Assembly: GCA_963833095.1 (NCBI GenBank)
Contig: CAWHWQ010000003.1
Location: 64,001-128,000, forward strand
Direction: 5' to 3'
Length of the DNA stretch: 64,000 nt
DNA from: Vulcanimicrobiota bacterium
GTDB lineage: Bacteria; Vulcanimicrobiota; Vulcanimicrobiia; Vulcanimicrobiales; Vulcanimicrobiaceae
Below, piece by piece: positions 7,411 through 42,318 of the stretch. Made by a program: the position numbers and the translations under genes. Every line of letters begins with the position of its first letter. Position 1 is the stretch's first letter. Below the pieces are notes generated by a model. It had not been told where the DNA came from. It searched no databases and was given only the letters and a program-made list of their open reading frames with translations.

Positions 7411-8555
7411 GTGGGCTCGCTGTTCCGTACCCGGTTTTCGGCCGCGTTTATCGCGCTTGCCCTCTCGATAAGCATCCCGGCAGCGGCACGGGCAGACGCG
7501 GTTTCGCCGGCGCAGGTTGCGAAGATCGACACCATTGTGCGGACGGCGATGGCGCAGCAGCATCTGGTCGGCGTCGAAGTCGCGGTGGGGCGCAATGGCA
7601 CAACGCTGTTCACGAAAGGGTACGGGCTGCGGGATCAGGCGAAGAGTCTTCCGGTAACCGCGAATACGGTCTTTCCGATCGGCTCGATCAGCAAGCAGTT
7701 CACCGCGGCCTGCGTGATGCTGCTGGTGCAACAAGGCAAAATCAATCTCGATGCCAGGCTCGCGACGTACCTGCCCGGCGTCGCGCATGCGCGGGAGATC
7801 ACCGTGCGTGAGATCCTCGACCAAATGTCGGGGCTTCACGATTACCTCGAGAACAAGCCGCTGATTTCGGCATTTTTGGAGGCACGTGGACGAAGCACGA
7901 GCCGTTCGCTTACTACGTCAATCTCACGCGCGGGGATCCCTTGACCTTCAAGCCTGGAACCAAGTGGGAATACAGCAACACCAACTACGCCGTGGCGGGG
8001 ATGCTAATCGAGAAAGTCAGCGGCGAACCCTACCGGACATTTCTCTCCCAAAACATTTTCGAAGCGCAAAACCTGACCTCGATGCAATACCTCACCTGGT
8101 CGATTCCCACGGGCAGCGACGTCACGCGCGGCTACAATTACGCGAAGGGCTCGTACACACTCGTGCCGCGGTACGACATGTCGTGGGGCGGTGCGGCCGG
8201 CGCAATCGCATCGAATGCGGCGGACCTCGTGAAGTGGGACGGCGCGTTCTTCGACGGCAAGGTGATCTCGCAAAGCAATGTGGAGATCGCGACCACGCCG
8301 CCGCGCGGCATAACCCTGGGCCTGCCTGCCGGTAACACGCAGAGCACAATCGGCGAGGGCTACGGTTTCGGGTGGGTCGCTGGGCACGACGAAGGGCGCC
8401 GGATCGTCTGGCACAACGGCGGTCTCATCGGTGCGCGCGCGATGAACGCGGTCTTTCCCGACGACGGCCTCGAGATCGTGATCCTTACCAACATGACGAC
8501 GGCAGATCCTGAAGCGATCTCACTGCGTATTGCCCGGCTGCTCTATGGTCAATAA
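7411..8555 (+). CDS. Secreted serine hydrolase, beta-lactamase/AmpC-like (one frameshift near 7890)
   Basis: Signal peptide; SxxK 'GSISKQF', 'YSNTNY', 'HNGG'; GGAGG RBS. Confidence 0.85.
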
Positions 8556-9987
8556 ACCGTTGCGCATCTTTACCGCGATGCTCCTGACCGAGACAAACAC
8601 GTTTTCGCCGCTCCCGACGGGCGCGAAGGCCTTCGATCGCGGCCGTTTGCAGTCCGACGTCGCGTCGTTGGTAGTCTGGCGTGAATCGGGCGAACGCGAT
8701 GGCCATGAGGTCATTGAGAGCATCGTCGCGATCGCGCAGCCGGCCGGTCGTACGGTCCGTGCCGTTTACGAGGGCCTTCGCGATGAACTCCTCGACGACT
8801 TGCGGCGCGCCTTACCGGTCGACGTCATCTTACTCTACCTGCACGGCGCGATGGTCGCGGAGGGCTATGACGACTGCGAGGGCGACGTGCTGCAGCGCGC
8901 GCGGGAGATCGCCGGCGACGCTGCAATCATCGGTGCCGAACTCGATCTCCATTCGCACCTCACACAAACGATGCTCGCCAATGCCAATGTGATCATCGCA
9001 TACAAGGAATATCCACATACCGACACCGTCGATCGCGCCCGCGACCTGTATCGGGTCTGCGTCGAGGCTGCGGACGGCCGCACTCGGCCGGCAATGGCCA
9101 CCTACGATTGCAAGATCGTCGGAATGTTCCCAACCACGGCGCAGCCGATGCGGGCACTCGTCGATGAGATGTCGGCGCGTGAGCGCGATGGCATTCTTTC
9201 GCTCAGCCTTATCCACGGATTTCCCTGGGGCGATGTGCTCGAGTCCGGTGTGAAGATGCTGGCCATTGCTGACGGCGACGCGGCCCTCGCGGCGCGTACT
9301 GCGCGGGAATTTGGAGAGCGCTTTTGGGCTATCCGCCAAGAGGCGTTGCTGCATGCCACCCCGCTTGACGAGGCACTCGATGCGGCGCTAGCGACGCCGG
9401 GCGGTCCGATCGTGCTCGCCGATGTCGCCGACAATGCGGGCGGCGGCGCGCCGGGCGACAGCACCTACGTGCTGCGCGCATTGCTCGAGCGCGGCATCGA
9501 GAATGTGGCGACCGGAACCTATTACGATCCGATGGCAGTCGACGCGTGCTTTGAGGCGGGCGAGGGCGCAACAATCGACCTGCGCTTTGGTGGAAAGCTC
9601 GGAATCGCATCCGGTGATCCGATCGATTCGCGCGTTGAGGTCATGCGTCTGCTCGACGCGCACGAACAGGATTACATGGATGATACGCGGCCGGTACCGC
9701 TCGGGCGCAGCGCTTGGATCCGCGCGCAGGGTATCGATATCGTGCTGGTCTCCGCGCGCACCCAGGTCTTTGCGCCCAGTGCCTTCACCGGCCTTGGCAT
9801 CTCGCTCGACGACAAGAAGCTCATCGTGGTCAAGTCCTCGCACCATTTCTGGGGGAAGTTTGCGCCGCTCGCGAAACGAGTAATTCACGTCAGTGCGCCC
9901 GGCGCGCTCGCGGTCGACTTTGCCGCGATCGCGTACGAAAAGCGCGATCTGAACTATTGGCCTCGGATCGATATGGAGATGAAGTGA
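8545..9987 (+). CDS. M81 family metallopeptidase (MlrC-like)
   Basis: 'ETNTFSP', 'LHGAMVA..DDCEGD', 'DLH', 'KEYPHTD', 'DNAGGGAPGD', 'VVKSSHHF'. Confidence 0.9.
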   Translation: MVNKPLRIFTAMLLTETNTFSPLPTGAKAFDRGRLQSDVASLVVWRESGERDGHEVIESIVAIAQPAGRTVRAVYEGLRDELLDDLRRALPVDVILLYLHGAMVAEGYDDCEGDVLQRAREIAGDAAIIGAELDLHSHLTQTMLANANVIIAYKEYPHTDTVDRARDLYRVCVEAADGRTRPAMATYDCKIVGMFPTTAQPMRALVDEMSARERDGILSLSLIHGFPWGDVLESGVKMLAIADGDAALAARTAREFGERFWAIRQEALLHATPLDEALDAALATPGGPIVLADVADNAGGGAPGDSTYVLRALLERGIENVATGTYYDPMAVDACFEAGEGATIDLRFGGKLGIASGDPIDSRVEVMRLLDAHEQDYMDDTRPVPLGRSAWIRAQGIDIVLVSARTQVFAPSAFTGLGISLDDKKLIVVKSSHHFWGKFAPLAKRVIHVSAPGALAVDFAAIAYEKRDLNYWPRIDMEMK

Positions 9988-27489: not shown

Positions 27490-27871
27490 TAGCCCGACGG
27501 AACGCGCTGCGGCGGAATCGCGCAGCGCATCACTGGCGTACCTCTTCTGGCCGACGGCGCTCATCGAGCAGATCACGCCGCGCCCCGAGACGTCGAGCTG
27601 GTTCCGTTTTCACATGCGGCAAGCCCTTGGGTTCGGCATCTTGTCGAGCGTCATCGGGCTTGCCGCTTTCCTGTGGCCCCTGATCTTGAGCCTGCTGGTG
27701 AGCAACGTCGTCGCGACCCTGTGGATCTACGCGATTGCGATGCTGGCGGATCTTGCCCTCTTGGTCTTATGGGTGCTCCTCGCGGTACGCTATAGTCAGC
27801 GGGCGGGGCGGGGCGAGCTCTTCGACGTGCCCTGGGTCGCGCGCCTGACAGGGACCTCGGTCCAAAAGTAG
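27485..27871 (+). CDS. Small membrane protein (DUF4870-like); start uncertain (first ATG at 27614)
   Basis: Frame open from 27485: '[18 protein letters not shown]', hydrophobic helices, 'GELFDVPWV'. Confidence 0.6.
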
Positions 27872-27885
27872 TATTCAGGGCCGTC

Positions 27886-28323
27886 GAGCCATGGGGTCGC
27901 CGCACGAAGCGGCGACAAAATTGCAGCACAGGATGTGCGTGCCCGCGCGGTAGCGAGGGAGCCATGGGGTCGCCGCACGAAGCGGCGACAAAATTGCAGC
28001 ACAGGATGTGCGTGCCCGCGCGGTAGCGAGGGAGCCATGGGGTCGCCGCACGAAGCGGCGACAAAATTGCAGCACAGGATGTGCGTGCCCGCGCGGTAGC
28101 GAGGGAGCCATGGGGTCGCCGCACGAAGCGGCGACAAAATTGCAGCACAGGATGTGCGTGCCCGCGCGGTAGCGAGGGAGCCATGGGGTCGCCGCACGAA
28201 GCGGCGACAAAATTGCAGCACAGGATGTGCGTGCCCGCGCGGTAGCGAGGGAGCCATGGGGTCGCCGCACGAAGCGGCGACAAAATTGCAGCACAGGATG
28301 TGCGTGCCCGCGCGGTAGCGAGG
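27886..28323 (+). repeat. Six identical tandem 73-bp repeats immediately 5' of tRNA-Gln
   Basis: Unit GAGCCATGGGGTCGCCGCACGAAGCGGCGACAAAATTGCAGCACAGGATGTGCGTGCCCGCGCGGTAGCGAGG starting at 27886, 27959, 28032, 28105, 28178, 28251. Confidence 0.97.
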
Positions 28324-28329
28324 GAGCAA

Positions 28330-28401
28330 TGGGGTGTCGCCAAGCGGTAAGGCAGCGGGCTTTGAATCCGCCATTCGTTGGTTCGAATCCAGCCACCCCA
28401 G
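28330..28401 (+). tRNA. tRNA-Gln (anticodon TTG), CCA not encoded
   Basis: Acceptor TGGGGTG/CACCCCA, D-arm GCCAAGCGGTAAGGC, anticodon arm GCGGG-CTTTGAA-TCCGC, T-arm GTTGG-TTCGAAT-CCAGC. Confidence 0.95.
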
Positions 28402-28444
28402 AGAAAGCCTCAGCCCGTCCTTGAGACGGGCTGAGGCTTTCTCT
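28400..28444 (+). terminator. Perfect 20-bp hairpin after the tRNA (terminator-like)
   Basis: AGAGAAAGCCTCAGCCCGTC-CTTGA-GACGGGCTGAGGCTTTCTCT. Confidence 0.7.
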
Positions 28445-28534
28445 CTTTGATATGGGGATGAGGACCAACGAAGTTGGCGCCGGCAGGATGCCGGTGGTGG
28501 GAACGCAGCGACAGGATGTCGCGGCGGCGTTCCC

Positions 28535-29865: not shown

Positions 29866-32800
29866 ATGTCGATTGCACGTACGTTCGCACTCGCGGCCTT
29901 GCTATTGGGCGTGTCCTTTGTACCTGCCCGTGCCGCCGATCCGCTGATTCTTCAAAGTCCGACCGTCAGCCGAACGCAGATCGCGTTCGTTTACGGCGGC
30001 GACATCTGGGTGGTTTCGCATGAGGGCGGGGTAGCGCGGCGTCTGGTGACCGGATTCGGTCTCAACGGCGCGCCGTATTTCTCGCCTGACGGGTCGACGA
30101 TCGCGTTCAGCGCGAACTACGACGGCAGTACGAACGTCTACACCGTTTCCGCGTCGGGCGGCGAGCCGGAGCGACTCACTTACCACCCCGGCGCCGACGT
30201 CGTGACGGGCTGGACACCTGACGGCAGCAAGATTCTTTTTGCGTCGCACCGCGAGAGCCAGAACCGATGCGACGCAACTCTACGAAATTCCCAAAGGCGG
30301 CGGCATCCCGGCGATGCTGCCGCTGCCCGACGCAACCACCGCCTCCTTTTCGCCCGACGGTACCCACTTCGCGTACGTGCCGAACAGCCAATGGGAGTGG
30401 TACTGGCAGGGCTATCGCGGCGGACAAACGACACCGATTTGGATCGCGAATCTCGCCGATTCGTCGGTCATACCGATTCCACGAAATAATTCCAACGACC
30501 GTTTCCCGATGTGGATCGGTCACGAGATCTATTTCTTTCCGATCGCGGCGGACACGTTCACGCTGTACGCCTACGATCCGCAGACGCGCGCCTCGACGCA
30601 GCTCATCGAGAACCCGCATGGCTTTGACATCGTCTCGGCGTCGGCGAACAACGGCGAGATCGTCTACTCGAAATTCGATTCGATCCATCTCTATCGATCC
30701 GTCGTCGCGCACCGATCGCGAAGTGCCAATGACAATTGCCGCCGACATGCCCGATTTGCGTCCGCAGTGGGTTCCGGTCGCGAATCAAATTCAGAATGCC
30801 GCGATCTCGCCGACCGGCGTGCGCGCGGTTTTCGAAGCGCACGGCGACATCCTCACCGTCCCGGTCGAAAACGGTCGACGTTCGCAATCTCACACAGACG
30901 TCCGGGCATCATGGAGCGCGACCCGGCGTGGTCGCCCGACGGCAAGTGGATCGCGTATTTCTCGGATGCGTGCGGCGAGTACACGCTGCGCTTAAGGGAT
31001 CAGAAGGCCTGTTGCCCGAGCGCGTCTATCACACTCGAACCGAATCCGTCGTTTTACTACTCGCCGACCTGGTCGCCGGACAGCAAGAAGATCGCCTACA
31101 GCGATAAGCACTCGGCTATCTGTACTACATCGACTAAGCGCAAGAGCATCCGCAAGGCGGTCAAGTTCGCGCAGCAGCGCCTACGAGGTTTTCGGCCAGA
31201 ACACGTTCGGCGCGGTCATGGTCGCCGGACAGCCGATATATTGCCTATCAGCCGAGGAACTCACGAGCTTCATCCACGCGATCTTCATCTACGATACGCA
31301 GGACGGCCAAGCGCACCAGATCACCGACGGCATGAGCGATGCTACCAGCCCGCCTTCGATAAGAATCCGGAAAGTACCTGTACTTCCTTGCGAGCACCAA
31401 TACCGGCTTCACCGAGTACGGGCTCGACATGGAGAGCGACGAGCGCCCGACCTCGAGCAGCGTGTATGCAGCGTCCTGCCAAAAGCGATGCATCGCCGGT
31501 AGCGCCGCAAAGCGATGACGAACCGGTCACCAGCGACGAGCCGGTGAGCGGACCGCCGGCGGCAAGCACGACACCCAAGCCGGCAACCCGCCCGACGGCC
31601 GCGACATCAAAGATGCCGGCGATCGATTTCGACGAAATCGGTCAGCGCATCGTCTCGCTTGCCGATTCCCTCGGCGAACTACGCCGGCGTCGTGTCGGCA
31701 ACGGCGGGCACGATCTTCCTCGGCGCAGGCGCCGCTGGTGAGCGTCGATCCGTTGCCGCCGACGTTTACGATTTTTCGGTACGACAATGCTTCGCGAAAG
31801 GTGATGCCGCTATGCCGACGGCGTGAGCGCATTCGCCGGCGTCTCGTCTCGACGGGAAGAAAATGCTGATCGCGCGGGGCCGCTTCGTTCCGCAGTGGTC
31901 GATCGTGCCCACACAGCTTCCGGTTCCGCCGCCGCCCGGTTTGGGTGCGCTAGCAACGAGCGGACTCGAAGTGCGCAGCGTGCCGCGCGAAGAGTGGGCG
32001 CAGATGTTTCGCGAAACGTGGCGCATCGAGCGCTACTGGTTCTACGATCCGCACTATCACGGTCTCGACATCGGCGCCGCGGAAAAACGATTCGCGGCGT
32101 TCTTGCCGGGACTCGCTTCGCGGTCGGACTTCACCTATCTCACCCAGCAGATGATCGGGTATCTTTCGGTCGGGCATCTGTGGGTCTATCCGGGTGTCGC
32201 GCCGCCGAAAACCGCATCACGTGAACGTCGGCCTACTCGGCGCCGACTACACCGTGATCACAATGGCATTCCGCTTCGCCAAAATCTACAACGGTGAAAA
32301 TTGGAATCCGCAGCTGCACGCGCCGCTGACACAACCCGGCGTGAACGTGCACGTCGGTGACTACTTGCTTGCAGTCAACGGCTATCCCGTGCACGCGGAT
32401 CGCGAGGTCTCCGCCGACTTCCAAGAAACCGCCGGGAAGCAAACCACGATCACGGTCGGCCTCCAATGCCGAGCGGAGCGGCTCGCGCAACGTCGTCGTC
32501 GTGCCGCTTGCCGAGCGAAGCGGCCTTGCGCAACCTTGCGTGGATCGAACACAACCGCCGAGAAGTCGATCGCCTGAGCGGCGGCAAGCTCGGCTACGTC
32601 TACATGCCCGATACGGCGTACGGCGGGTTCACCAATTTCAATCGCTACTTCTTCGCGCAGGTCGGCAAACAAGGCATCGTCCTCGACGAACGCTACAACC
32701 ACGGCGGCCAAATCGCCGACTACGTGATCGACGTGCTCAGCCGCAAGCGACCGGCGATCATCAAAGGACGCGACGGGCATGCCGTACACCGATCCGCCGC

Positions 32801-33217
32801 TGGCGATCTTCGGGCCTAAGGTGATGATCATCAATCAGTACGCGGGCTCGGGCGGCGACGCGATGCCGTGGCTTTTCGAAAAGGCCGAACCTCGGTCCGC
32901 TCGTCGGCGTGCGGACCTGGGGCGGGCTCGTCGGCATCGGCGGTTATCCGACCCTGATGGACGGCGGCAGCGTCATGGCGCCGCGCGTGGCGATCGGCGG
33001 TCTTCACGGCCAGTGGGAGGTCGAGGGCCACGGCATTGCGCCGGACATCGAGGTGCAGCAAGATCCCAAACTCGTGCGCGAAGGCCACGATCCGCAACTC
33101 GAAGCCGCGGTCGCAACCGCGATGAAAGAGCTACGCGAGCATCCGATTCCGCACTATACGCCCCCGGCATTTCCGGATCACCATCCGGTCTTGCCGCCGA
33201 TCGTCCAAAAATCGTAG
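29866..33217 (+). CDS. Tricorn protease homologue (S41 peptidase, PD40 propellers, PDZ); many frameshifts
   Basis: 'IAFVYGGDIW', repeated 'FSPDG/WSPDG', 'YRGG', 'DERYNHGG', 'AGSGGD', 'RTWGGLVGI', 'EGHGIAPDIEV', 'DPQLEAA'. Confidence 0.9.
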
Positions 33218-34885: not shown

Positions 34886-35220
34886 CGCCGCGCGAGCTGA
34901 TCGAAGAATTGGTCGGCGCCTGGCAAAGCGGTGACGCGCATCGCGCTGCCGCATTTTTCGCACCGGATGCTGTGTATCACGAATCGGGCCAACAACCGAT
35001 CGTCGGACGCGCCGCGATTTTCGCGCACTTCGCGCGTTTTTTTCGCGATGGGCCCGCATGGCGCTTCGATATCGACGAGATGATCGTCGAGGGCGAGCAT
35101 GCAGCGGTCGGTTATCGTTTCGGTATAAATCGCGACGGTACGTGGACCACGAGCGGCGGTTGCGCTCTGGTGCATTGTAAAGAAAACCTTATTGCGCAAT
35201 GGCGCGAGTATCGCGGCTGA
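34882..35220 (+). CDS. NTF2/SnoaL-like protein
   Basis: 'AW..GD..AAFFAPDAVY..P..GRAAI', C-terminal 'WREY'. Confidence 0.8.
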   Translation: MTPRELIEELVGAWQSGDAHRAAAFFAPDAVYHESGQQPIVGRAAIFAHFARFFRDGPAWRFDIDEMIVEGEHAAVGYRFGINRDGTWTTSGGCALVHCKENLIAQWREYRG

Positions 35221-35365
35221 GGAGTGTTAGCTTTCCGAACGGTGCGACTGCAGGTGCACCCTGAGCCTGCGGTCGCCCTTAGTATGACGTAGAACTAGCG
35301 CGTCTGCTCGGGGCGTTAGCGGTCAAAGCTTCACTGAGCAACGTCAGCTAAGGATTAGAATTAAC

Positions 35366-35908
35366 TTGAACAGAGTACTTATGTCTCTACCGGCACTTGT
35401 GATGGCCGGAGTCTTCGCGGTGACAAGCCCGGCGATGGCAAGCAACCCAACCGCGAGCGGCACGCTCGCCGTGAGCGCCACGGTGGCGAGCTCGATCAGT
35501 ATGACTTTTGTAACCGACGCGTCGGGCATCGCGCTGGGCGGCTCGGGAACCAACGCTGCAACGCTCGCCTTTGGGTCGATTCAAGCCTACGGTGGAGTGG
35601 TTCCGACCGGCGCCACGCGCGTCGTCAACGGTACGACCAGTTTCACGTACAGCAGCCCGTTTGGCGTCAACGTCGCCGAAGAGAATTCGGCGAGCGCCAC
35701 CTATACGCTGGCTGCCCTGCTGAGCGCTACGAGCCCAGATACGTTCGCGGTCGATGCGGTTACACTTACGACCGCGTCGCAGACGATCACCGCAACCGGC
35801 GCCTACGGCGCCAACGCGACCCATACGCTTGCGCTAACGGTTCCGTTTAGCATCGCCAGCGGCACCGTGATCAATTCGAACGTGAATTTCACGGCCACCG
35901 CAAACTAA
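35366..35908 (+). CDS. Secreted pilin-like subunit 1
   Basis: Sec signal (..SPAMA); Ser/Thr/Ala-rich beta protein 'ASGTLAVSATV..ATLAFG'; C-terminal 'VNFTATAN'. Confidence 0.7.
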   Translation: MNRVLMSLPALVMAGVFAVTSPAMASNPTASGTLAVSATVASSISMTFVTDASGIALGGSGTNAATLAFGSIQAYGGVVPTGATRVVNGTTSFTYSSPFGVNVAEENSASATYTLAALLSATSPDTFAVDAVTLTTASQTITATGAYGANATHTLALTVPFSIASGTVINSNVNFTATAN

Positions 35909-35924
35909 AAGAGCGGTCGGGAGA

Positions 35925-35950
35925 GATACTCGCGCAATGGCGCGGGTATC
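35925..35950 (+). terminator. Hairpin after pilin-like gene 1
   Basis: GATACTCGCGC-AATG-GCGCGGGTATC; no clear U-tract. Confidence 0.4.
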
Positions 35951-36061
35951 GTGGCTAATGGTCATTCCTGGTTATAAACGCTTTTCATCGCGCGTAATCG
36001 TGTCGATTGTTCGCTTTGCGCGCGGTTCGACCGCAGAGGCACTAAAGGATCAATTCTTCTC

Positions 36062-36601
36062 TTGAACAGAGTTCGGATGTCTCTACCGGCAATCGTGATG
36101 GCCGGATTCCTCGCGGTCTCGAGTCCGGCACCCGCAGCGGTGAGAGCAAGCGGCGCGCTCAGCGTAAGTGCCACGGTGGCAAGCTCGATCGGTCTGACCT
36201 TCACCAGCTCCAGCACGGGCGTGACCTTGGGCGGCGCGGGCACGAGCGCAGCAACGATGGCTTTCGGCTCGATCTCTCCCCACGGCGGAACGATGCCGAC
36301 CGGCGCCAAGCGCGTCAATAACGGGACGACCAGCTACACCTACAGCAGTCCGTTCGACATCACGGTCACGGAGCAGAACTCGTCAAGCAGCTGCTATACG
36401 CTTGCTGCCTTGCTGAGCGCTTCGAGCACGGATACGTTCACCATCGATGCAGTGACACTCTCGACCACCTTGCAGACGATAACCGCAACCGGCGTCTATG
36501 CGAGGAGCGAACAACATACGCTTGCGCTGACGGTTCCGCTGAGCGTTGCGGGGGGCACTGCGATCAATGACACCGTGGATTTCACCGCGACCGCGAACTA
36601 A
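36062..36601 (+). CDS. Secreted pilin-like subunit 2 (paralogue)
   Basis: Colinear with subunit 1; ends 'VDFTATAN'. Confidence 0.7.
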   Translation: MNRVRMSLPAIVMAGFLAVSSPAPAAVRASGALSVSATVASSIGLTFTSSSTGVTLGGAGTSAATMAFGSISPHGGTMPTGAKRVNNGTTSYTYSSPFDITVTEQNSSSSCYTLAALLSASSTDTFTIDAVTLSTTLQTITATGVYARSEQHTLALTVPLSVAGGTAINDTVDFTATAN

Positions 36602-36634
36602 AAAAGCGTCTTTTATCGCACGAAAACCGCCGAC

Positions 36635-37320
36635 TGTTAGCTTTCCGAACGGTGCGACTGCAGGTGCACCCTGTGCCTGCGATCGCCCTTAGTATGAAGT
36701 AGAACTAGCGCGTCTGCTCAGGGCGTTAGCGGTCAAAGCTTCACTGAGCAACGTCAGCTAAGGATTAGAATTAACTTGAACAGAGTACTTATGTCTCTAC
36801 CGGCACTTGTGATGGCCGGAGTCTTCGCGGTGACAAGCCCGGCGATGGCAAGCAACCCAATCGCGAGCGGCACGCTCGCCGTGAGCGCCACGGTGGCGAG
36901 CTCGATCAGTATGACTTTTGTAACCGACGCGTCGGGCATCGCGCTGGGCGGCTCGGGAACCAACGCTGCGACGCTCGCCTTTGGGTCGATTCAAGCCTAC
37001 GGTGGAGTGGTTCCGACCGGCGCCACGCGCGTCGTCAACGGTACGACCAGTTTCACGTACAGCAGCCCGTTTGGCGTCAACGTCGCCGAAGAGAATTCGG
37101 CGAGCGCCACCTATACGCTGGCTGCCTTGTTGAGCGCGACGAGCCCGGACACATTTGCCGTCGACGCAGTTACCCTTTCGACCGCGTCTCAGACGATTAC
37201 CGCGACCGGCGTTTACGCTAGCAACGCGACCCACACGCTTGCGCTAACGGTACCGTTTAGCATCGCCAGCGGCACCGTGATCAATTCGAACGTGAATTTC
37301 ACGGCCACCGCAAACTAAAA
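36635..37320 (+). repeat. ~690-bp near-identical duplicate of 35225-35910 (leader plus pilin gene)
   Basis: Direct alignment at offset 1410 starting TGTTAGCTTTCCGAACGG. Confidence 0.95.
36776..37318 (+). CDS. Secreted pilin-like subunit 3 (near-identical to subunit 1)
   Basis: 180 aa, five substitutions relative to subunit 1; ends 'VNFTATAN'. Confidence 0.7.
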   Translation: MNRVLMSLPALVMAGVFAVTSPAMASNPIASGTLAVSATVASSISMTFVTDASGIALGGSGTNAATLAFGSIQAYGGVVPTGATRVVNGTTSFTYSSPFGVNVAEENSASATYTLAALLSATSPDTFAVDAVTLSTASQTITATGVYASNATHTLALTVPFSIASGTVINSNVNFTATAN

Positions 37321-37386
37321 GGCGCTCGCTTGCGAGGAAGCCGGCGCAGGCTGCGCCGGTTATATCCGCCAACATGGAGTCAATCT

Positions 37387-38403
37387 ATGGGTCGCCAATG
37401 CGCAATAACACTGCTCTTGGCGCTCCTTCTTGGCGGAGTGGGGCGGGCTGCTCCCGTTGCGCCATCGTCGCAAAGCACCGAGCTCATCCTTCAGGTCGGC
37501 GTCACCACGACGATCGCGCTGGTGCTCCTAACCAGTAGCGGCGGCTGCCCGCTGGTCAACTCGAATTCGAACGCGACGGCCATCGACCTCGGCCAGGCAA
37601 GCTTGAGCACCTATACGTCGTGCGCTAGCTACTCGAGCGGTCGCACCTATCAACTCTCAACGAGTCTGAGCGCCGAAGCGACCTGCTCGGGAACGTGCAC
37701 CAATTGGAACCTGAGCGCGCGCCTCAACTCCGCGGCGCAGGCGGGCACAACCTGGTTTGTTGGAACCTCCAATCTCACCACCACCAATCAGACGATTGGG
37801 AGTAACCTTTCCTACGGGTCGCTCCAAAACGGACCGGTCCAACTTACCGTCAATACGTCGACTGCCCCGACCGGCGCGCTCCAGCAGGGGATCACAATAA
37901 CAGCCACAGCAAACGGCGTAGCCGCGACGGCAAGCGCGACGCTGAACCTCGAGGAAATCAACCAGCCCGGAATCTCAATCTTTCTCGCGGCGGATGCGAG
38001 CGGTGCTCCCGTCACCGGCGGCGCCTTCAATGCGGCGCTGGATTTTGGTACGGTTTCAGCCGCCGGATCACTGCCAACCGGCGTGACGCGCCCGACGGTG
38101 ACCGCGTCGTCGTTCACGGTTGCGACGATCGTCGACATCGATGTAGAGAAGGGCGGCTATACGAGCAGCAACTACACGATGCGCGCGGCGCTAGGCGCGG
38201 CCGCGCCCACCGGACTGACGTATTTGGCAAATGGCGTGACGCTTACGACGTCCGCGCAGACGATTACCAGTACGGGAGCCTATAACACCAATCAAGCCTA
38301 CGCGTTGGACATCGTAATCAAGACGGCGGCACCCGCATCGGGTGGTCCAACCGTCGGTACGCTGCTCTCCGACACGATCGACTTTACGGCGACGGCGAAC
38401 TAG
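37387..38403 (+). CDS. Two-domain pilin-like protein (candidate tip adhesin)
   Basis: GGAG RBS, signal peptide; Cys-containing domain 1 ends 'ITITATAN'; domain 2 is homologous to subunits 1-3 and ends 'IDFTATAN'. Confidence 0.65.
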   Translation: MGRQCAITLLLALLLGGVGRAAPVAPSSQSTELILQVGVTTTIALVLLTSSGGCPLVNSNSNATAIDLGQASLSTYTSCASYSSGRTYQLSTSLSAEATCSGTCTNWNLSARLNSAAQAGTTWFVGTSNLTTTNQTIGSNLSYGSLQNGPVQLTVNTSTAPTGALQQGITITATANGVAATASATLNLEEINQPGISIFLAADASGAPVTGGAFNAALDFGTVSAAGSLPTGVTRPTVTASSFTVATIVDIDVEKGGYTSSNYTMRAALGAAAPTGLTYLANGVTLTTSAQTITSTGAYNTNQAYALDIVIKTAAPASGGPTVGTLLSDTIDFTATAN

Positions 38404-38900
38404 TGCGCAAGATCTGTTTCGTTCTGGCTTCATTGCTGCTTCTCGGGGCGGCAAAGTCGGCCGCCGGAATGCCCGCAACGAGCGGCTCGATTGCGGTGGC
38501 CGTGGTGCAACTTCCCGAGGGTGCAATTATTGCAGGGGCGGCAGGTACGGCGATCGCCGAACTCGGCACCGTTTCTTCGAATGTGCGCACTACGAGCCCG
38601 GGCGTTGCGATCGTCCGGCGCGCCACGTCGTACGTCGTGGTCACGCTCATTGGACTGCGCGCGACGAGCTCAGGTGCGCTTGGGACGGTCGCACTTGCGG
38701 CATATCTCAGCGCTCCGATTCCGGGCGTTTCCGTGCGGCTCGACGGGGTCGATCTCTCCACCTTTCCGCAGCTCTTTGCCGCGCACGTTCCACTGAACGT
38801 CGTTTCGCGTCACAAGCTCGAGCTCGAAATTCCCAACGGCATGAGCCCGCAACTAATTCCGTCCCAAATTCCGCTCGAATTTCAGGCACAGGAAGAATAA
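38403..38900 (+). CDS. Secreted minor pilin-like protein
   Basis: Signal peptide; 'TSGSIAVAV..AELGTVS..VRLDGVDLST..HKLELEIP' parallels the subunit pattern. Confidence 0.55.
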   Translation: MRKICFVLASLLLLGAAKSAAGMPATSGSIAVAVVQLPEGAIIAGAAGTAIAELGTVSSNVRTTSPGVAIVRRATSYVVVTLIGLRATSSGALGTVALAAYLSAPIPGVSVRLDGVDLSTFPQLFAAHVPLNVVSRHKLELEIPNGMSPQLIPSQIPLEFQAQEE

Positions 38901-38902
38901 TC

Positions 38903-39670
38903 ATGAAATTTGCGGCCGCATTGTTGTTCGTACTCGCTACGACGGCGCAATCGCTCGCTCAGAGCGCGCCGAGCCTCTCACTCTCGCCGTCGGTCGTGAT
39001 CCTCAAGGCGACGTTCGGGCAAACGATTAAACAATCGATCGGGCTCAACAACGGCACCGGCCAAGGCCTCGATTTCGAAATGATCGCCGACGACGTGGTC
39101 GTCAAGAACGGGAAACGCGTATTCGTCGCGGCCGGGGAACTGCCGCATTCGATCGCTGCCACGGCGGTGTTCTCCGAGCGGTCCGGGCACGTCGCGCCCG
39201 GCTCGAGCCAGGCGATTCAAGTACTCCTGACGATCCCAGACCAAACCACGATCCGTGCAGTAGCGATTTACTTCCGTTCCAAGCACGTAGCTGTCGAACA
39301 TGGCACTGTTTCGATCACGGCTACCGTGGGAGCGTTGATTACCTTTATTCTGAGCGACAACGCGGTCGTGCAGGCCGATCCCGTTCGCGTGCATGCGGCG
39401 ACCGCGAGCGAGAACTTGAAGATCGTCGAAGCGCTCAAGAACACGGGCAGCGAGCCGGTCGTGCCTGACGGCGTTGCCGCCTTCCTCGACGCGAGCGGTT
39501 CGCTCGTGGCCAAGATTCCTTTTCAATCCCAGCGGTTATTACCGGGCGAACGTCTCGATTTCTCCGCCGAGTACGCCGGACGTTTGAAACCCGGCACCTA
39601 TCGCGTCCTCTGCACGTTTTCGTATGAAGGCAAGGCGTTGACGAACAGCGCGGAGATGCGAGTGCGTTGA
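38903..39670 (+). CDS. Periplasmic two-Ig-domain chaperone-like protein (PapD/DUF916-like)
   Basis: Signal peptide; 'LSLSPS..G..IGLNN', 'VAPGSSQ.IQVLLTIP', 'LKNTG', 'LLPGE', 'LKPGTY'. Confidence 0.6.
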   Translation: MKFAAALLFVLATTAQSLAQSAPSLSLSPSVVILKATFGQTIKQSIGLNNGTGQGLDFEMIADDVVVKNGKRVFVAAGELPHSIAATAVFSERSGHVAPGSSQAIQVLLTIPDQTTIRAVAIYFRSKHVAVEHGTVSITATVGALITFILSDNAVVQADPVRVHAATASENLKIVEALKNTGSEPVVPDGVAAFLDASGSLVAKIPFQSQRLLPGERLDFSAEYAGRLKPGTYRVLCTFSYEGKALTNSAEMRVR

Positions 39671-42318
39671 AATATCTCGCCGCGACGCTGCTGATCCTGG
39701 CGCTTCTCGTGCCCAGGAGCGTTACGGCGCAAGAGATGTTAACCGTCGCCTACGACAAAACAATACATCTCAGCGTGCCGGGAGCGACCTCGGCCTATGC
39801 GGTGAATCCGTCGATTGTGGAAGCCGGCATTGTCGGCGGTACGGTTGCGATCCGCGGCGTCGGCACCGGCGTGACCAGCGTCGTCGTCTTGATCGGCGGC
39901 GGAGCGGTAACGACTTTCGCAGTGACCGTGACGGGTGCACCCGTGGTGGAGCTTGGCATTGGCGGAGCGGCAGCGCGTTTTTCCGCGGGCGGAAGCTACA
40001 ACGGCACGTACAACTCCGAGGCCGGGTCCGTGACTAACGCGTTCGATCTGTGGCAGCAAGAGGGACAGACTTTTCGGCAGGTGCTCGTAACGGAGGCGAC
40101 GTTCTTGTCGCCGAGCGCAGGACAAGCCGGCAGTGGCTTCCCCGTGCTCAGCTACGAAATCAGCCGGCCCGGGCAGCGAATCGTCTTTCTCGACGATGTC
40201 GTGACGATCTCGCCGTTGACGTTTAACGAATCGCTCGTTCGCGGGTTCCACCTTCAACAAGGCCCGTGGACGTTCCATATCGGCGCCTCGTCGGTCGGCG
40301 TCTTCGGCTCGTACTTCATTCCTACCAATCCGCAGTGGATAGGCGGTGTGACGCGCGCGTTCAAAATCTCTAGCAGCAGCATGATCTCGGCGAACCTTTA
40401 CGATATCGTGAACGCTCCCGGCCTGGTCAGTTCCACGAACGGCGGCGTCATCGGCTCGCTGCTCTATACCTATCAACCTCAACCGCATTTCATCGTACAG
40501 GCCGAAGTTGGCCTGAGCCGCGCGATCGGCTTTGATTTTTCGACGGTCTATGACGATCGCAAGCAGCACGGCGATGCATCGCTGGTTGCGAAGCCGGCAA
40601 CGTTCGCGTCGCTTGCGACTGACGCTCAACAAGGGTTGTTCGGTAACGCCGATTACAGCCGAACGTTCAGCGACGCGCTCAATGTCAACGCAACGGTCTC
40701 AAAGAGCGATTACAACCTCCCGACGTTTCATGAGAATTCGCTTACCAGCCAGGGGAACGCGAACTATCGGCTCAAAGGAGACTTCTCGGTCGGCGCTGGC
40801 GTGCTCTACTCGAGCTTCGATTCGATCTATCCAACCGTCTTTAACGTACGGACGCTGGCGATTCCGCTCTCGATCGCTTATAACGGCAAGCATTTTGTAG
40901 CGGGCCTTCAGGATCAGCCGACGAGCGACTTTCAGGGAACGCGCGCTAACGGTTACGGTGCCAACGTCGGGCTAAACTACCCGCGTTTCCAAATCAGCGC
41001 GCTCTACCAGCACAGTGTCGATATCCCGACGGTGTCATCGCTGTTCAACCAGGTTCCGGGATTGCAAGGTGCTCTTGAACAAGCCGGGATTACGATCACC
41101 AACCCGTCGCAGCTTGCCGCCCTGCTCAACAATACTGCGTTGCTCGCCAGCTTGGGTTTCACCGGGCTGGAGTTGAACGTCGCGCCGGCCCAAAACAACA
41201 TCGGAGCCAACATAAACTGGCTTTTCCCGGGAAAATCGCGAGGGGAGCTAAGCTTGAGTTTCCTGAACAGCGATGCGCAGCTTACCCAGGGAGCGTTCGA
41301 TTTCCGCCTCGCGACGCTGACGTATCTACGCCGGCTGAACGCCTCAACCGATATGACGGCGTCCGTGACGACCCTGCGCAGCAGCGAGTATTCGTCGGCC
41401 GCGGGATCAGGCCGGAGCGCACCGTCGGTCAGCTCGCAGGTGTCCTACGGTCTAACGTTTTCGCACCGCTTCTCGTCGGTTCCGGCGTTTCTCTTCCCAA
41501 CCCGACGCGGCAACATCGACGGCTATGTCTTTCGTGACGACGATTCGAGCGGGAGATTCTCGACCAGCACGCCGGGTATCGGCGGGGTGGAGGTAAAGCT
41601 CGATGGTGAGCGTTCGACGCGTACCGACTCGGCCGGGCACTACACCTTCGCCGGCGTTCCTTATGGCACGCATCAGGTGGAAGCGCAGATTCCGAGCACG
41701 GCGCCTTCCTACTTCACGACGGAGTCGCCCGCGTTGGCGCAGATCGGAAGCCGAGTCGATTTCGGCGTGAATTCCGTGCAGGGGAAAATCATCGGGGACA
41801 TCGTCAATGACGCGGGCCAAGGGATTGGCGGTGTTGTCCTTGCGATCCAAGGGTCAAAGCTAAGTGCCACGACCGGAAGTGACGGCGAGTTCGCGTTCGA
41901 GGGCGTCGGCCCGGGCCACTACACCGTAGCGGCTTCGCCGGACTCGTTTCCAACGGGATACGATCTTTCAAGCTTGTCGACGATGACAACCGACGTTACA
42001 ACCGGAGTACCCAAGCCGTTGACGCTGTCGGTTCGCGCGCTGCGCAGTGTCTCCGGCACGGTCACGATGTTCGATCCACGCCACTCGAAGCTTGCGCCGG
42101 CAGCCGGAATCGAAGTGTCAATTCCGCAGCTCAACATCGTTTCGAAGACGGACGGCAACGGCGTGTACGCGCTTCGCAATCTGCCGGCGGGTTCGTATAC
42201 GGTCCAAGTCGGTCATGGATCGTCGGCGCAGCGCCGCGCGATCTCGCTACCATCCGATCCGACGACCTTGACCGCTGTCGATTTCCGCGTGACCGCGGAG
42301 CAACTCCCGCACCGTTAG
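39667..42318 (+). CDS. Usher-like outer-membrane protein: N-terminal RcpA/CpaC-type domain, beta-barrel, C-terminal SdrD-B/carboxypeptidase-regulatory-like domains
   Basis: 'LTVAYDKT..NPSIVEA..IRGVGTGVTSVVV'; many amphipathic strands; 'IDGYVFRDDD..GIGGVEVKL..TDSAGHYTF', 'TDGNGVYALRNLPAGSY'. Confidence 0.6.
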   Translation: MKYLAATLLILALLVPRSVTAQEMLTVAYDKTIHLSVPGATSAYAVNPSIVEAGIVGGTVAIRGVGTGVTSVVVLIGGGAVTTFAVTVTGAPVVELGIGGAAARFSAGGSYNGTYNSEAGSVTNAFDLWQQEGQTFRQVLVTEATFLSPSAGQAGSGFPVLSYEISRPGQRIVFLDDVVTISPLTFNESLVRGFHLQQGPWTFHIGASSVGVFGSYFIPTNPQWIGGVTRAFKISSSSMISANLYDIVNAPGLVSSTNGGVIGSLLYTYQPQPHFIVQAEVGLSRAIGFDFSTVYDDRKQHGDASLVAKPATFASLATDAQQGLFGNADYSRTFSDALNVNATVSKSDYNLPTFHENSLTSQGNANYRLKGDFSVGAGVLYSSFDSIYPTVFNVRTLAIPLSIAYNGKHFVAGLQDQPTSDFQGTRANGYGANVGLNYPRFQISALYQHSVDIPTVSSLFNQVPGLQGALEQAGITITNPSQLAALLNNTALLASLGFTGLELNVAPAQNNIGANINWLFPGKSRGELSLSFLNSDAQLTQGAFDFRLATLTYLRRLNASTDMTASVTTLRSSEYSSAAGSGRSAPSVSSQVSYGLTFSHRFSSVPAFLFPTRRGNIDGYVFRDDDSSGRFSTSTPGIGGVEVKLDGERSTRTDSAGHYTFAGVPYGTHQVEAQIPSTAPSYFTTESPALAQIGSRVDFGVNSVQGKIIGDIVNDAGQGIGGVVLAIQGSKLSATTGSDGEFAFEGVGPGHYTVAASPDSFPTGYDLSSLSTMTTDVTTGVPKPLTLSVRALRSVSGTVTMFDPRHSKLAPAAGIEVSIPQLNIVSKTDGNGVYALRNLPAGSYTVQVGHGSSAQRRAISLPSDPTTLTAVDFRVTAEQLPHR

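Follow-up and report, generated by a model that had tools for sequence, protein, structure and literature searches.

Locus Layout and Conservation

What does a locus of seven genes for exported proteins build, when six of its products (g1–g6) have zero matches in Pfam or NCBIfam? The window, that is, the whole stretch of 64,000 nucleotides of Vulcanimicrobiota DNA analysed here, contains seven co-oriented ORFs (g1–g7) on the forward strand at 35,366–42,318, to which all coordinates below refer, and g4–g7 abut or overlap with gaps of −1, 2 and −4. All seven proteins (7/7) start with a signal-peptide-like leader, in which a basic residue is followed by a hydrophobic core (best 10-residue Kyte–Doolittle mean 2.6–3.1) and an AxA-like site. 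An earlier note on this DNA had described seven genes in one orientation, all with signal peptides, and this is confirmed from the ORFs, the signals being judged by a heuristic and by eye.

The C-termini which that note regarded as shared are indeed present: g1 and g3 end in NFTATAN, g2 and g4 end in DFTATAN, and g4 has an internal ITATAN at 37,897–37,914. In a six-frame regular-expression search, FTATAN-type C-termini were found at exactly four places in the 2.8 Mb genome, all of them at this locus, and the paralogues are clearly related (97% identity for g1/g3, 67–68% for g2 with g1/g3, 36–38% for the C-terminal half of g4), so the motif reflects paralogy and not chance. Ser, Thr and Ala together account for 46–47% of g1–g3, as expected from the description of these paralogues as Ser/Thr/Ala-rich.

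The seven genes are a conserved operon. The chaperone gene (g6) is present in 39 of the 40 loci having at least 900 nt downstream, and the barrel gene (g7) in 27/27 loci having at least 2500 nt downstream, both counts including the window and some near-duplicate contigs; locus L028 has no chaperone match within 1307 nt downstream. That is to say, the proposed check on the co-occurrence of homologues with chaperone and barrel genes came out in favour of a common system. The three-copy pilin layout is also seen in loci L002, L017 and L020. The family comprises 283 clusters at 50% identity, its hosts are Eremiobacterota and, going by database labels, mostly Acidobacteriota, and the annotations of the relatives read hypothetical protein or carboxypeptidase-regulatory-domain protein. 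No relative was among the 171 pattern matches in viral contigs, and 1 of 72,556 plasmid records carries a remotely related chaperone (25% identity) from Deinococcus. In sequencing runs, g7 is covered without listed indels by four DNA runs, which come from one study, possibly include the source and are not independent; no run with RNA carrying the locus was listed. The four Rfam matches in the region are all far under the gathering score.

In addition, a 144-nt leader absent from the earlier note is common to g1 (35,222–35,365) and g3 (36,632–36,775), the two copies being 96.5% identical. The g1 leader contains a −10-like TAGTAT at 35,280–35,285, followed by a conserved 5′ hairpin at 35,295–35,319 and a weaker second hairpin. 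The TAnnAT columns are invariant in 11 leaders, and the consensus hairpin shows one- and two-sided changes, which is a weak signal from 11 close sequences. These features suggest that both copies would act as promoters of g1 and g3.

Putative Major Pilins and the Predicted Donor Strand

The putative major pilin g1 (35,366–35,908, 180 aa) is free of Cys, and its AF2 model, fold matches and homotrimer model point to an incomplete Ig fold with FTATAN as the C-terminal strand. The paralogue g2 (36,062–36,601, 179 aa) also has the donor strand, and g3 (36,776–37,318, 180 aa) is a near-identical duplicate of g1. In the g1 monomer model (pLDDT 90.6), residues 26–42 lie unpaired outside the sheet, which speaks against the subunits being complete stand-alone domains. 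The candidate donor strand is the N-terminal segment of the mature protein (residues 1–18, ...ASGTLAVSATV..., 35,441–35,494), in which G7 and A13 are invariant in 65 sequences.

Subunit–subunit modelling, proposed in the earlier note together with this donor strand, gave the expected picture. The g1 homotrimer scored 0.76 against 0.00 for the best of three controls; the mark was met by 20/30 solved pairs and 1/23 single chains in a calibration whose set-up differs from the trimer job (three copies, custom alignment). At least 91% of contacts recur between runs, the partner pLDDT is at least 90, and donor residues 5, 7, 9 and 11 touch strand 147–152 and residues 38–42 of the next copy (pairs 151:7, 149:9 and 152:5). 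The N-terminal strand is thus predicted to pair antiparallel with the FTATAN strand of the next subunit, that is, donor-strand exchange, and the passing score may stem from likeness to solved chaperone–usher fibres.

The best structural matches of g1 are pilins of the alternative (alpha) class, namely CFA/I (CfaABCE), CS1 and CS17 (8ehs, 3f83–3f85, 4hji), which are described as assembling by donor-strand exchange (PMC7531860). The top five VIA rows are the CS17 pilin, CfaB and CooA (Z 8.2–8.6, rmsd 2.9–3.7, 107–111 aligned residues, 12–14% identity), with the aligned g1 core beginning at model residue 43/44, and the best pilin Z of 8.6 is only about 1 above that of unrelated Ig domains (7.4). 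Foldseek gives CfaB/CS17 in its first seven rows (E 4e-3 to 8e-3, none at E ≤ 0.001), and a profile search of PDB sequences with the pilin profile gave no match. Moreover, the g1 donor strand shares 41% identity over 17 columns with that of the archaic pilin of the same genome, although the probability of this alignment is only 8%. Both likenesses would fit a far-diverged but ordinary alternative (alpha; CS1/CFA/I) or archaic member, whose usher would have the usual five domains, the plug having escaped both alignment and model. However, the Usher, PapD_N, SCPU and Fimbrial_CS1 models all miss the locus, whereas the first three find the canonical operon of the genome over the cut-off. Fimbrial_CS1 (PF04449) matches 0/111 pilins and nothing in the genome, and SCPU (PF05229) likewise matches none of the 111 pilins; the subunits of the locus show no canonical Cys pair. 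In Pfam and NCBIfam, therefore, no profile of a described pilus class recognises the locus.

Two absences claimed for the subunits need qualification. The N-terminal Cys pair is missing in that no Cys stands at the first canonical Cys position of the genome's own SCPU pilin, but g2 has one Cys and domain 1 of g4 has four. Similarly, there is no WxL Pfam match among the 111 pilins, but one W-x-L occurs in g4. The leading fold rows contain no WxL, SCPU or Pam structure, which excludes nothing.

The Fused Subunit g4 and the Tip Candidate g5

The gene g4 (37,387–38,403, 338 aa) encodes a tandem of two pilin domains and is a probable adaptor. It begins with a donor-like strand, and is built of a Cys-bearing domain 1, the ITATAN junction, a further donor-like strand and then domain 2 ending in DFTATAN. 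The Cys residues of domain 1 are at 54, 79, 100 and 104, with none at the first canonical Cys position of the SCPU pilin of this genome. The pilin profile matches each of the two halves (E 1.6e-18 and 6.9e-39), and the pair is fused in eight loci and encoded by two separate adjacent genes in seven, while it is missing from many loci. Judged by its sequence, g4 unites two genes of pilin type that each bring a donor-like strand, and it resembles the engineered in-cis pilin fusions 3f83–3f85 among the fold matches. The tip adhesin of the alternative class has two domains as well, but no donor strand. The earlier reading of this two-domain protein as the adhesin thus gives way to that of a pilin fusion, more likely an internal adaptor than a tip adhesin.

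The tip position is better suited to g5 (38,403–38,900, 165 aa), a divergent single-domain protein which ends in EFQAQEE and yet is a true member of the pilin family (profile E 6e-12). Its standing as a divergent minor subunit is therefore kept and its role is changed to candidate tip or initiator: only about 7 residues separate the signal peptide from the first core strand, too short a stretch for a donor strand, and g5 is a better tip candidate than g4. Among 46 g5-position genes, 17 bear a polar extension of 10–20 residues, possibly a degenerate donor strand. Since donor-strand scores below 0 also occur in 31/89 other pilin domains and the scoring profile was built from major pilins, the score alone cannot show that a strand is absent, and the strand-less genes were counted by eye, leaving out L030 (frameshift). 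On this sequence evidence the strand-less g5 is likely the tip subunit.

The Chaperone-like Protein g6

The product of g6 (38,903–39,670, 255 aa) is a putative subunit-binding periplasmic chaperone with two domains, as suggested by alignment, weak Pfam-clan matches and Atlas neighbours. R99 (39,254–39,256), R192 (39,533–39,535) and Y214, in mature numbering, are invariant in 81 sequences of the g6 family. Among these, weak PapD-like-clan matches are fn3_5 (38 sequences), Cep192_D6 (7) and HYDIN (3), and the Atlas neighbours include a PapD-named cluster (0.93) and, at 0.91, a cluster in which 27% of the members have PapD_N. A PDB-sequence profile search with the chaperone profile gave no meaningful match. 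In non-classical chaperones, an invariant Arg in strand F of domain 1 and a Tyr/Arg in domain 2 anchor the C-terminus of the subunit. An invariant domain-1 Arg is described for non-classical (archaic/alternative) chaperones (PMC4654587), which again favours an ordinary alpha or archaic member. The R192–Y214 spacing equals that of R174–Y196 in CsuC, and the three residues were considered as a CsuC triad on that ground; this assignment was dropped after alignment to the archaic chaperone of the genome placed R192 on its Tyr (probability 2%).

It is at g6 that a pilus of the WxL/DUF916 (Elr) or Pam type, transferred into a two-membrane cell, has to be weighed. WxLIP_PGBD weakly matches 4/81 chaperones (best E 0.002), and the Atlas gives WxLIP-bearing clusters at 0.91–0.93 for g6 and, at 0.87 for the pilin, a cluster in which 20% of members bear WxL. 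However, besides the lack of WxL matches among the pilins, g6 ends without a membrane helix, the operon has no sortase-type anchor gene, and the barrel gene follows in 27/27 loci. The hosts differ as well, Elr being found only in Bacillota in the account of bioRxiv 10.64898/2026.10.17.759780 and Pam reported only in CPR in that of PMC13278184, so this origin is extremely improbable. The parallel with WxL–DUF916 clusters drawn earlier holds for the mechanism, a donor-strand exchange that is guided by a chaperone and lies outside the classical families, but not for WxL pilins, the membrane-anchored chaperone or the sortase anchor; both Elr/WxL and Pam are described without an outer-membrane usher.

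The Usher-like Protein g7

The most unusual part of the locus, overlooked in the earlier note, is the build of g7 (39,667–42,318, 883 aa), for which the model (AF2, pLDDT 76.5, pTM 0.55) and sequence point to an outer-membrane usher. In Foldseek, the order of barrel and then C-terminal domains matches FimD (best, E 1.7e-15) and PapC (9.5e-13) over the whole protein, and VIA places the FimD barrel, 84–583 on 138–658, at Z 13.1 (rmsd 5.5, 356 residues). The three transthyretin-like C-terminal domains (41,506–42,315; Pfam CarboxypepD_reg in three stretches, E 2.3e-21) match 29 canonical ushers (HHalign probability 97%, E 5e-11), and matches in the PDB-sequence search with the usher profile are confined to them. 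The PF00577 profile finds the canonical usher of the genome and not g7, and neither PF00577 nor PapC_N is among the 25 families listed, out of 33, for 48 g7 homologues, the eight unlisted ones having at most one member each.

Studied ushers such as FimD and PapC are described as having five domains and a 24-strand barrel gated by an internal plug, and as becoming active when the plug is expelled (PMC8410936, PMC10418385). In g7, the barrel appears to have about 26 strands (DSSP elements of the model, with 371–377 merged with 380–385), and the strand 5–6 hairpin and the helix after strand 13 are at places matching FimD/PapC, but at the canonical plug site, the strand 6–strand 7 junction (40,240–40,284), alignments and contiguous model strands show a 2-residue turn. 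The plug-holding span is 15 residues in 48/48 homologues versus 102–105 in 29/29 canonical ushers, the alignment registers being weak: those locating the site have HHalign values of 3.5% and 14%, and undivided and global barrel alignments with canonical ushers failed. This weakness is a further point for an ordinary usher with a missed plug. However, the model strands are consecutive over 86–430 with no gap above 13 residues, which leaves no room for a sandwich plug of 75–90 residues, and the plug profile finds nothing in g7 residues 1–600 (0.5%). For the canonical plug span, a solved piece of the F1 capsule usher, 90 residues long, is a match (E 0.11). Taken with the profile results above, an ordinary alpha or archaic member is therefore unlikely, and g7 seems, from sequence and model, to be an usher without an internal plug between strands 6 and 7.

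Instead, an N-terminal Ig-like domain of the secretin N-domain type (39,730–39,933, model pLDDT 52–63) is a candidate mobile gate, with Pfam T2SS-T3SS_pil_N found in 25/48 homologues at E ≤ 0.1 (best 2.7e-05). A conserved helical insert of about 56 residues after strand 21 (41,020–41,187), with four helices at pLDDT below 50 and present in 48/48 rows, is a candidate lid that strand parity would place on the outer face. One or the other probably shuts the pore at rest.

The same features could be read as a passive export pore or transporter of the TonB-receptor kind, with the N-domain as cork and monomers assembling by themselves outside in TasA-type or chaperone-free archaeal style. VIA ranks TonB-dependent barrels (Z 16–19) above FimD (13.1–13.6), with FecA, FhuA and OprC first and ranges covering model residues 2–585; archaeal donor-strand filaments reach Z 6.8–7.0 for the pilin, and g7 has seemingly no plug and an N-domain not of the PapC type. 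Yet the homology of the C-terminal domains with those of ushers, the whole-protein domain order that fits FimD/PapC best, and an operon that retains both its own chaperone gene and a subunit lacking the strand make this less probable still. By model and sequence, g7 is an usher homologue of unusual build, and its family may belong to a larger group of plug-less ushers (L001, L136, L137, by eye).

Relation to Known Pili and Proposed Assembly

In view of the models, the co-occurrence and the negative profile results, which support the earlier suggestion of an undescribed donor-strand pilus family with a chaperone and an usher-like barrel, the locus very probably builds a chaperone–usher-type pilus of a separate, undescribed lineage. 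It differs from the alpha class in the low identity and missing Fimbrial_CS1 match of its pilins, in the order subunits–chaperone–usher with no adhesin gene after the usher, in a tip candidate that is single-domain and strand-less, and in g7, which appears to lack the plug described for CfaC (PMC7531860). With archaic (sigma) Csu/CupE (PMC4654587) and the SCPU–PapD_N–Usher operon of the genome it has in common the subunit-first order, similar donor-strand wording, the domain-1 Arg and homologous usher C-terminal domains, but its pilins have neither SCPU match nor canonical Cys pair, g6 has Arg at the domain-2 Tyr position (in a weak alignment), and g7 has seemingly no plug, three C-terminal domains and the helical insert. 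A search of literature outside subscription journals found no paper on this pilus family or on a plug-less usher. The published chaperone–usher range given in PMC4654587 covers only Proteobacteria, Cyanobacteria and Deinococcus-Thermus, and a cultured member of the present phylum is described as having an outer membrane (PMC9758169).

It is proposed that the subunits would cross the inner membrane via Sec, as their signal peptides suggest, and that g6 would complete each incomplete Ig fold and grip the FTATAN strand at its free C-terminus, the two invariant arginines of g6 probably making this contact. At the g7 barrel, the N-terminal strand of the incoming subunit is modelled to displace the chaperone strand and pair antiparallel with FTATAN. 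From tip to base, the order would be g5, g4 and then many copies of g1/g3/g2; in g4, the strand that follows ITATAN would complete domain 1 in cis and leave domain 2 open. With seemingly no plug between strands 6 and 7, gating would fall to the N-terminal Ig domain or the helical insert. By analogy, the job of the fibre is likely adhesion to surfaces, other cells or the biofilm matrix.

On balance, we lean towards a fuller picture: a separate chaperone–usher clade, frequent among soil Acidobacteriota and scattered among Eremiobacterota, with a plug-less usher of about 26 strands whose gate is either a tethered Ig domain of the secretin type at the N-terminus or a helical lid on the outer side, three C-terminal docking domains, a single-domain strand-less tip start, and in g4 a natural pilin–pilin fusion that fixes assembly order, a two-domain subunit in the making. 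If true, a natural plug-less family would show which parts of an usher are needed for catalysed strand exchange, and the small operon is suited to probing such exchange in a laboratory strain. Moreover, it names a likely adhesion organelle of abundant, mostly uncultured soil bacteria.

A Probable Pilus Operon and Its Surroundings

The locus consists of three major pilins ending in (N/D)FTATAN (g1, g2 and g3; 35366-35908, 36062-36601 and 36776-37318, + strand), a two-pilin-domain protein (g4, 37387-38403), a divergent minor pilin (g5, 38403-38900), a chaperone-like protein (g6, 38903-39670) and an 883-aa usher-like barrel protein (g7, 39667-42318). The seven genes, their order, their signal-peptide-like starts and the FTATAN ends agree with the description in the earlier note; all seven reading frames are intact despite frameshifts at other places of the same assembly, and the same pilus genes were found intact in other assemblies. 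The co-occurrence with chaperone and barrel genes was also checked and holds: a g6 homologue is present in 39 of the 40 loci with at least 900 nt beyond the last pilin gene, and g7 in all 27 loci with at least 2500 nt beyond it, counts that also take in close relatives, the window itself and some contigs that are near-duplicates. In the metagenome scan for such loci, 80 of 303 matches were kept. The order pilins, chaperone, barrel is invariable, the pilin genes number from 2 (smallest form) to 7 (largest), and conservation of the operon is established at the sequence level. Locus L087 carries an additional pilin-family gene on the opposite strand directly past the usher gene (8345-9043, −).

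Each g1-type gene is preceded by its own -10-like box and a conserved 5′ hairpin (35222-35365 and 36632-36775); Rfam gave no match for these leaders, and the hairpin may stabilise an abundant pilin mRNA. Both g1 and g2 have upstream of them one copy of a 25-nt direct repeat (92%; 35194-35218 and 35932-35956), which is retained in loci L017 and L020 and is a possible regulator site. Further upstream, tandem-repeat DNA (27651-28468), noticed through its repeated ORF translations, adjoins a tRNA-Gln gene (28330-28401), and a tricorn-like S41 protease gene, named by eye (29866-33217), is split across several frames, the breaks probably being assembly indels.

Major Pilin

The AlphaFold2 model of g1 (pLDDT 90.6) has a sheet beginning at residue 43, with residues 26-42 unpaired. 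In fold it comes closest to class 5 pilins, namely those of CS17, CFA/I and CS1 (Z 8.2-8.6; rmsd 2.9-3.7; 107-111 aligned; identity 12-14%), whose Z exceeds that of unrelated Ig domains by only about 1, and Foldseek also puts them first, at E 4e-3 or weaker. The predicted trimer of mature g1 scored 0.76, and the highest score among three controls was 0.00; solved pairs came up to the mark used in 20 of 30 cases and single chains in 1 of 23. Contact agreement between runs was at least 91%, and partner pLDDT at least 90. The groove of the next copy holds residues 1-18 (pairs 7:151, 9:149 and 5:152), and the N-terminal strand runs antiparallel to the FTATAN strand; the donor-strand exchange proposed earlier for this strand is thereby modelled, and the trimer result may reflect likeness to solved chaperone-usher fibres. 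The FTATAN motif would then be the edge strand receiving the donor, and its end the carboxylate which, as described in PMC4654587, chaperones anchor.

Among 111 aligned pilins, Pfam gave no convincing match (22 families, one member each). The SCPU, PapD_N, Usher and Fimbrial_CS1 models did not pick up the window locus, whereas the first three found, as a control, the canonical archaic operon of the same genome over cut-off (L128; SCPU, PapD_N, Usher, SCPU; G000:C1 898818-902845). The system does not match the family profiles of the alpha, sigma or WxL type. A WxL/Pam-type system is very unlikely.

Chaperone-like Protein

For g6, weak matches to PapD-like Ig families were obtained, and its Atlas neighbours include some named or annotated PapD. 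A search with the g6 profile hit the genes at the chaperone position both in a Deinococcus plasmid cluster (E 1e-21) and at a second locus of the host genome (E 7e-13). Across 81 g6-family sequences, R99, R192 and Y214 never vary, and an invariant domain-1 Arg is given in PMC4654587 as the hallmark of non-classical chaperones. The archaic chaperone of the genome aligns weakly with g6 (probability 2%); there, R99 lies within a few residues of the archaic Arg and R192 falls on the archaic domain-2 Tyr. Binding of subunits by g6 in the manner of a chaperone would be expected.

The Deinococcus plasmid cluster (L097 5827-11512, NZ_CP140100.1) encodes a secreted protein, the g6-like chaperone, a second secreted protein that is small, and a barrel protein of 1090 aa bearing the annotation carboxypeptidase-regulatory-domain protein; the cluster is a distant relative of the g1-g7 system.

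Usher-like Barrel and Its Apparently Missing Plug

In the g7 model (48 sequences, pLDDT 76.5, pTM 0.55), an N-terminal Ig domain is followed by a barrel (mature residues 86-581) and then by three domains of transthyretin-like type. FimD (1.7e-15) and PapC are the best Foldseek matches, while VIA places TonB-dependent barrels (Z 16-19) ahead of the FimD barrel (Z 13.1; rmsd 5.5, 356 aligned, 84-583 to 138-658). The VIA ranges of the TonB-dependent barrels begin at model residue 2-30, and these ranges, rather than coordinates, suggest that the model places the N-domain in the lumen. In 25 of the 48 homologues this domain is hit by T2SS-T3SS_pil_N, a secretin-type family, and a profile built from 29 canonical ushers of Eremiobacterota matches the C-terminal domains with 97% probability. 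The modelled barrel has 26 strands by our count, with a 56-residue helical insert past strand 21 that is kept in 48/48 rows and modelled below pLDDT 50.

Canonical ushers are described as having five domains and a 24-strand barrel gated by an internal plug (PMC8410936), and PapC without its plug as opening a large pore (PMC10418385). The alignment of g7 strands 4-6 and 8-13 with the canonical barrel is weak (HHalign 3.5% and 14%), and between these two anchors lie 15 residues in 48/48 g7 homologues versus 102-105 in 29/29 canonical ushers. In canonical ushers this stretch gives a hit (E 0.11) to a solved structure of 90 residues from the F1 capsule usher, a fragment taken to be its plug domain. 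As independent evidence, gaps between strands in the g7 model are at most 13 residues up to residue 430. By sequence comparison the plug span is missing in g7, which thereby departs from canonical ushers. A diverged alpha or sigma member whose plug has been overlooked is improbable, and a passive pore with self-assembly outside is slightly more improbable still.

Related usher-like proteins were observed elsewhere. Intact usher-like proteins of ~1000 aa in L136 (G130) and L137 (G273) are related to g7 over the C-terminal part; by eye, they lack the plug past the strand 5-6 hairpin as well as the N-terminal Ig domain, and perhaps represent a wider group of plug-less ushers. Of the 401 genomes searched, 11 more match at E ≤ 1e-30. 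The host genome also has a third pilus-like cluster, which is frameshifted (L001 5121-16000; G000:C1 about 517-528 kb) and adjoins a flagellin-like gene named by eye. It contains a g6-like chaperone (E 7e-13), an usher-like gene with similar C-terminal domains, in which strand 6 by eye passes directly into strand 7, a giant protein rich in Thr and Gly, and several secreted proteins of small size.

Minor Subunits

In 46/46 scored loci (L030 was dropped), the last pilin gene ahead of the chaperone is without the donor motif of the major pilins. By eye, 29 of the 46, including g5, have no room for a donor strand past the signal peptide, and the other 17 carry a polar extension of 10-20 residues. 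Since a subunit able to accept and not donate belongs at the tip, g5 is the putative tip subunit; Afa/Saf fibres are known to have single-domain caps that lack the strand. The gene for g4 is a fusion, fused in 8 loci and present as two adjacent genes in 7. In the fusion, the FTATAN-type strand of domain 1 passes through a two-residue turn into a strand resembling the second gene's donor strand, a junction geometry by which domain 1 would be completed in cis. Because g4 also begins with a donor-like strand, it is read as a probable adaptor linking g5 and the shaft.

Distribution and Proposed Assembly

Close relatives (78-94% identity) occur in records titled Eremiobacteraeota and Ca. Aquilonibacter; the cultured member of the phylum is described as having an outer membrane (PMC9758169). 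In clusters at 50% identity g1 has 283 relatives; at 90%, where 8000 candidates were scored, the count is at least 484. The closest Atlas clusters of pilin and chaperone are unnamed and labelled mostly Acidobacteriota, with one Pseudomonadota, and the NCBI labels of relatives include Ca. Angelobacter, Ca. Solibacter, Korobacteraceae and Terriglobales. Single bins labelled Alphaproteobacteria, Verrucomicrobiae, Saccharimonadales and Limnocylindrales also carry relatives, so the host range rests on few, unverified labels. Within the host phylum the system is patchy, the pilin being found in 2/201 genomes and full-length g7 in 7/401, compared with a canonical usher over the Pfam cut-off in 42/251 (a tally including two unpublished genomes, G231 and G233, used for no other claim). 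The chaperone-usher range listed in PMC4654587 omits this phylum. Literature searches found no description of this pilus family, and nothing on Acidobacteriota, usher and pilus.

The g1-g7 system probably builds a chaperone-usher-type pilus and would work like one. In the fibre, g5 would come first, then g4, then g1/g2/g3; the g7 pore would be gated by something other than an internal plug, and the pilus would presumably serve in adhesion.
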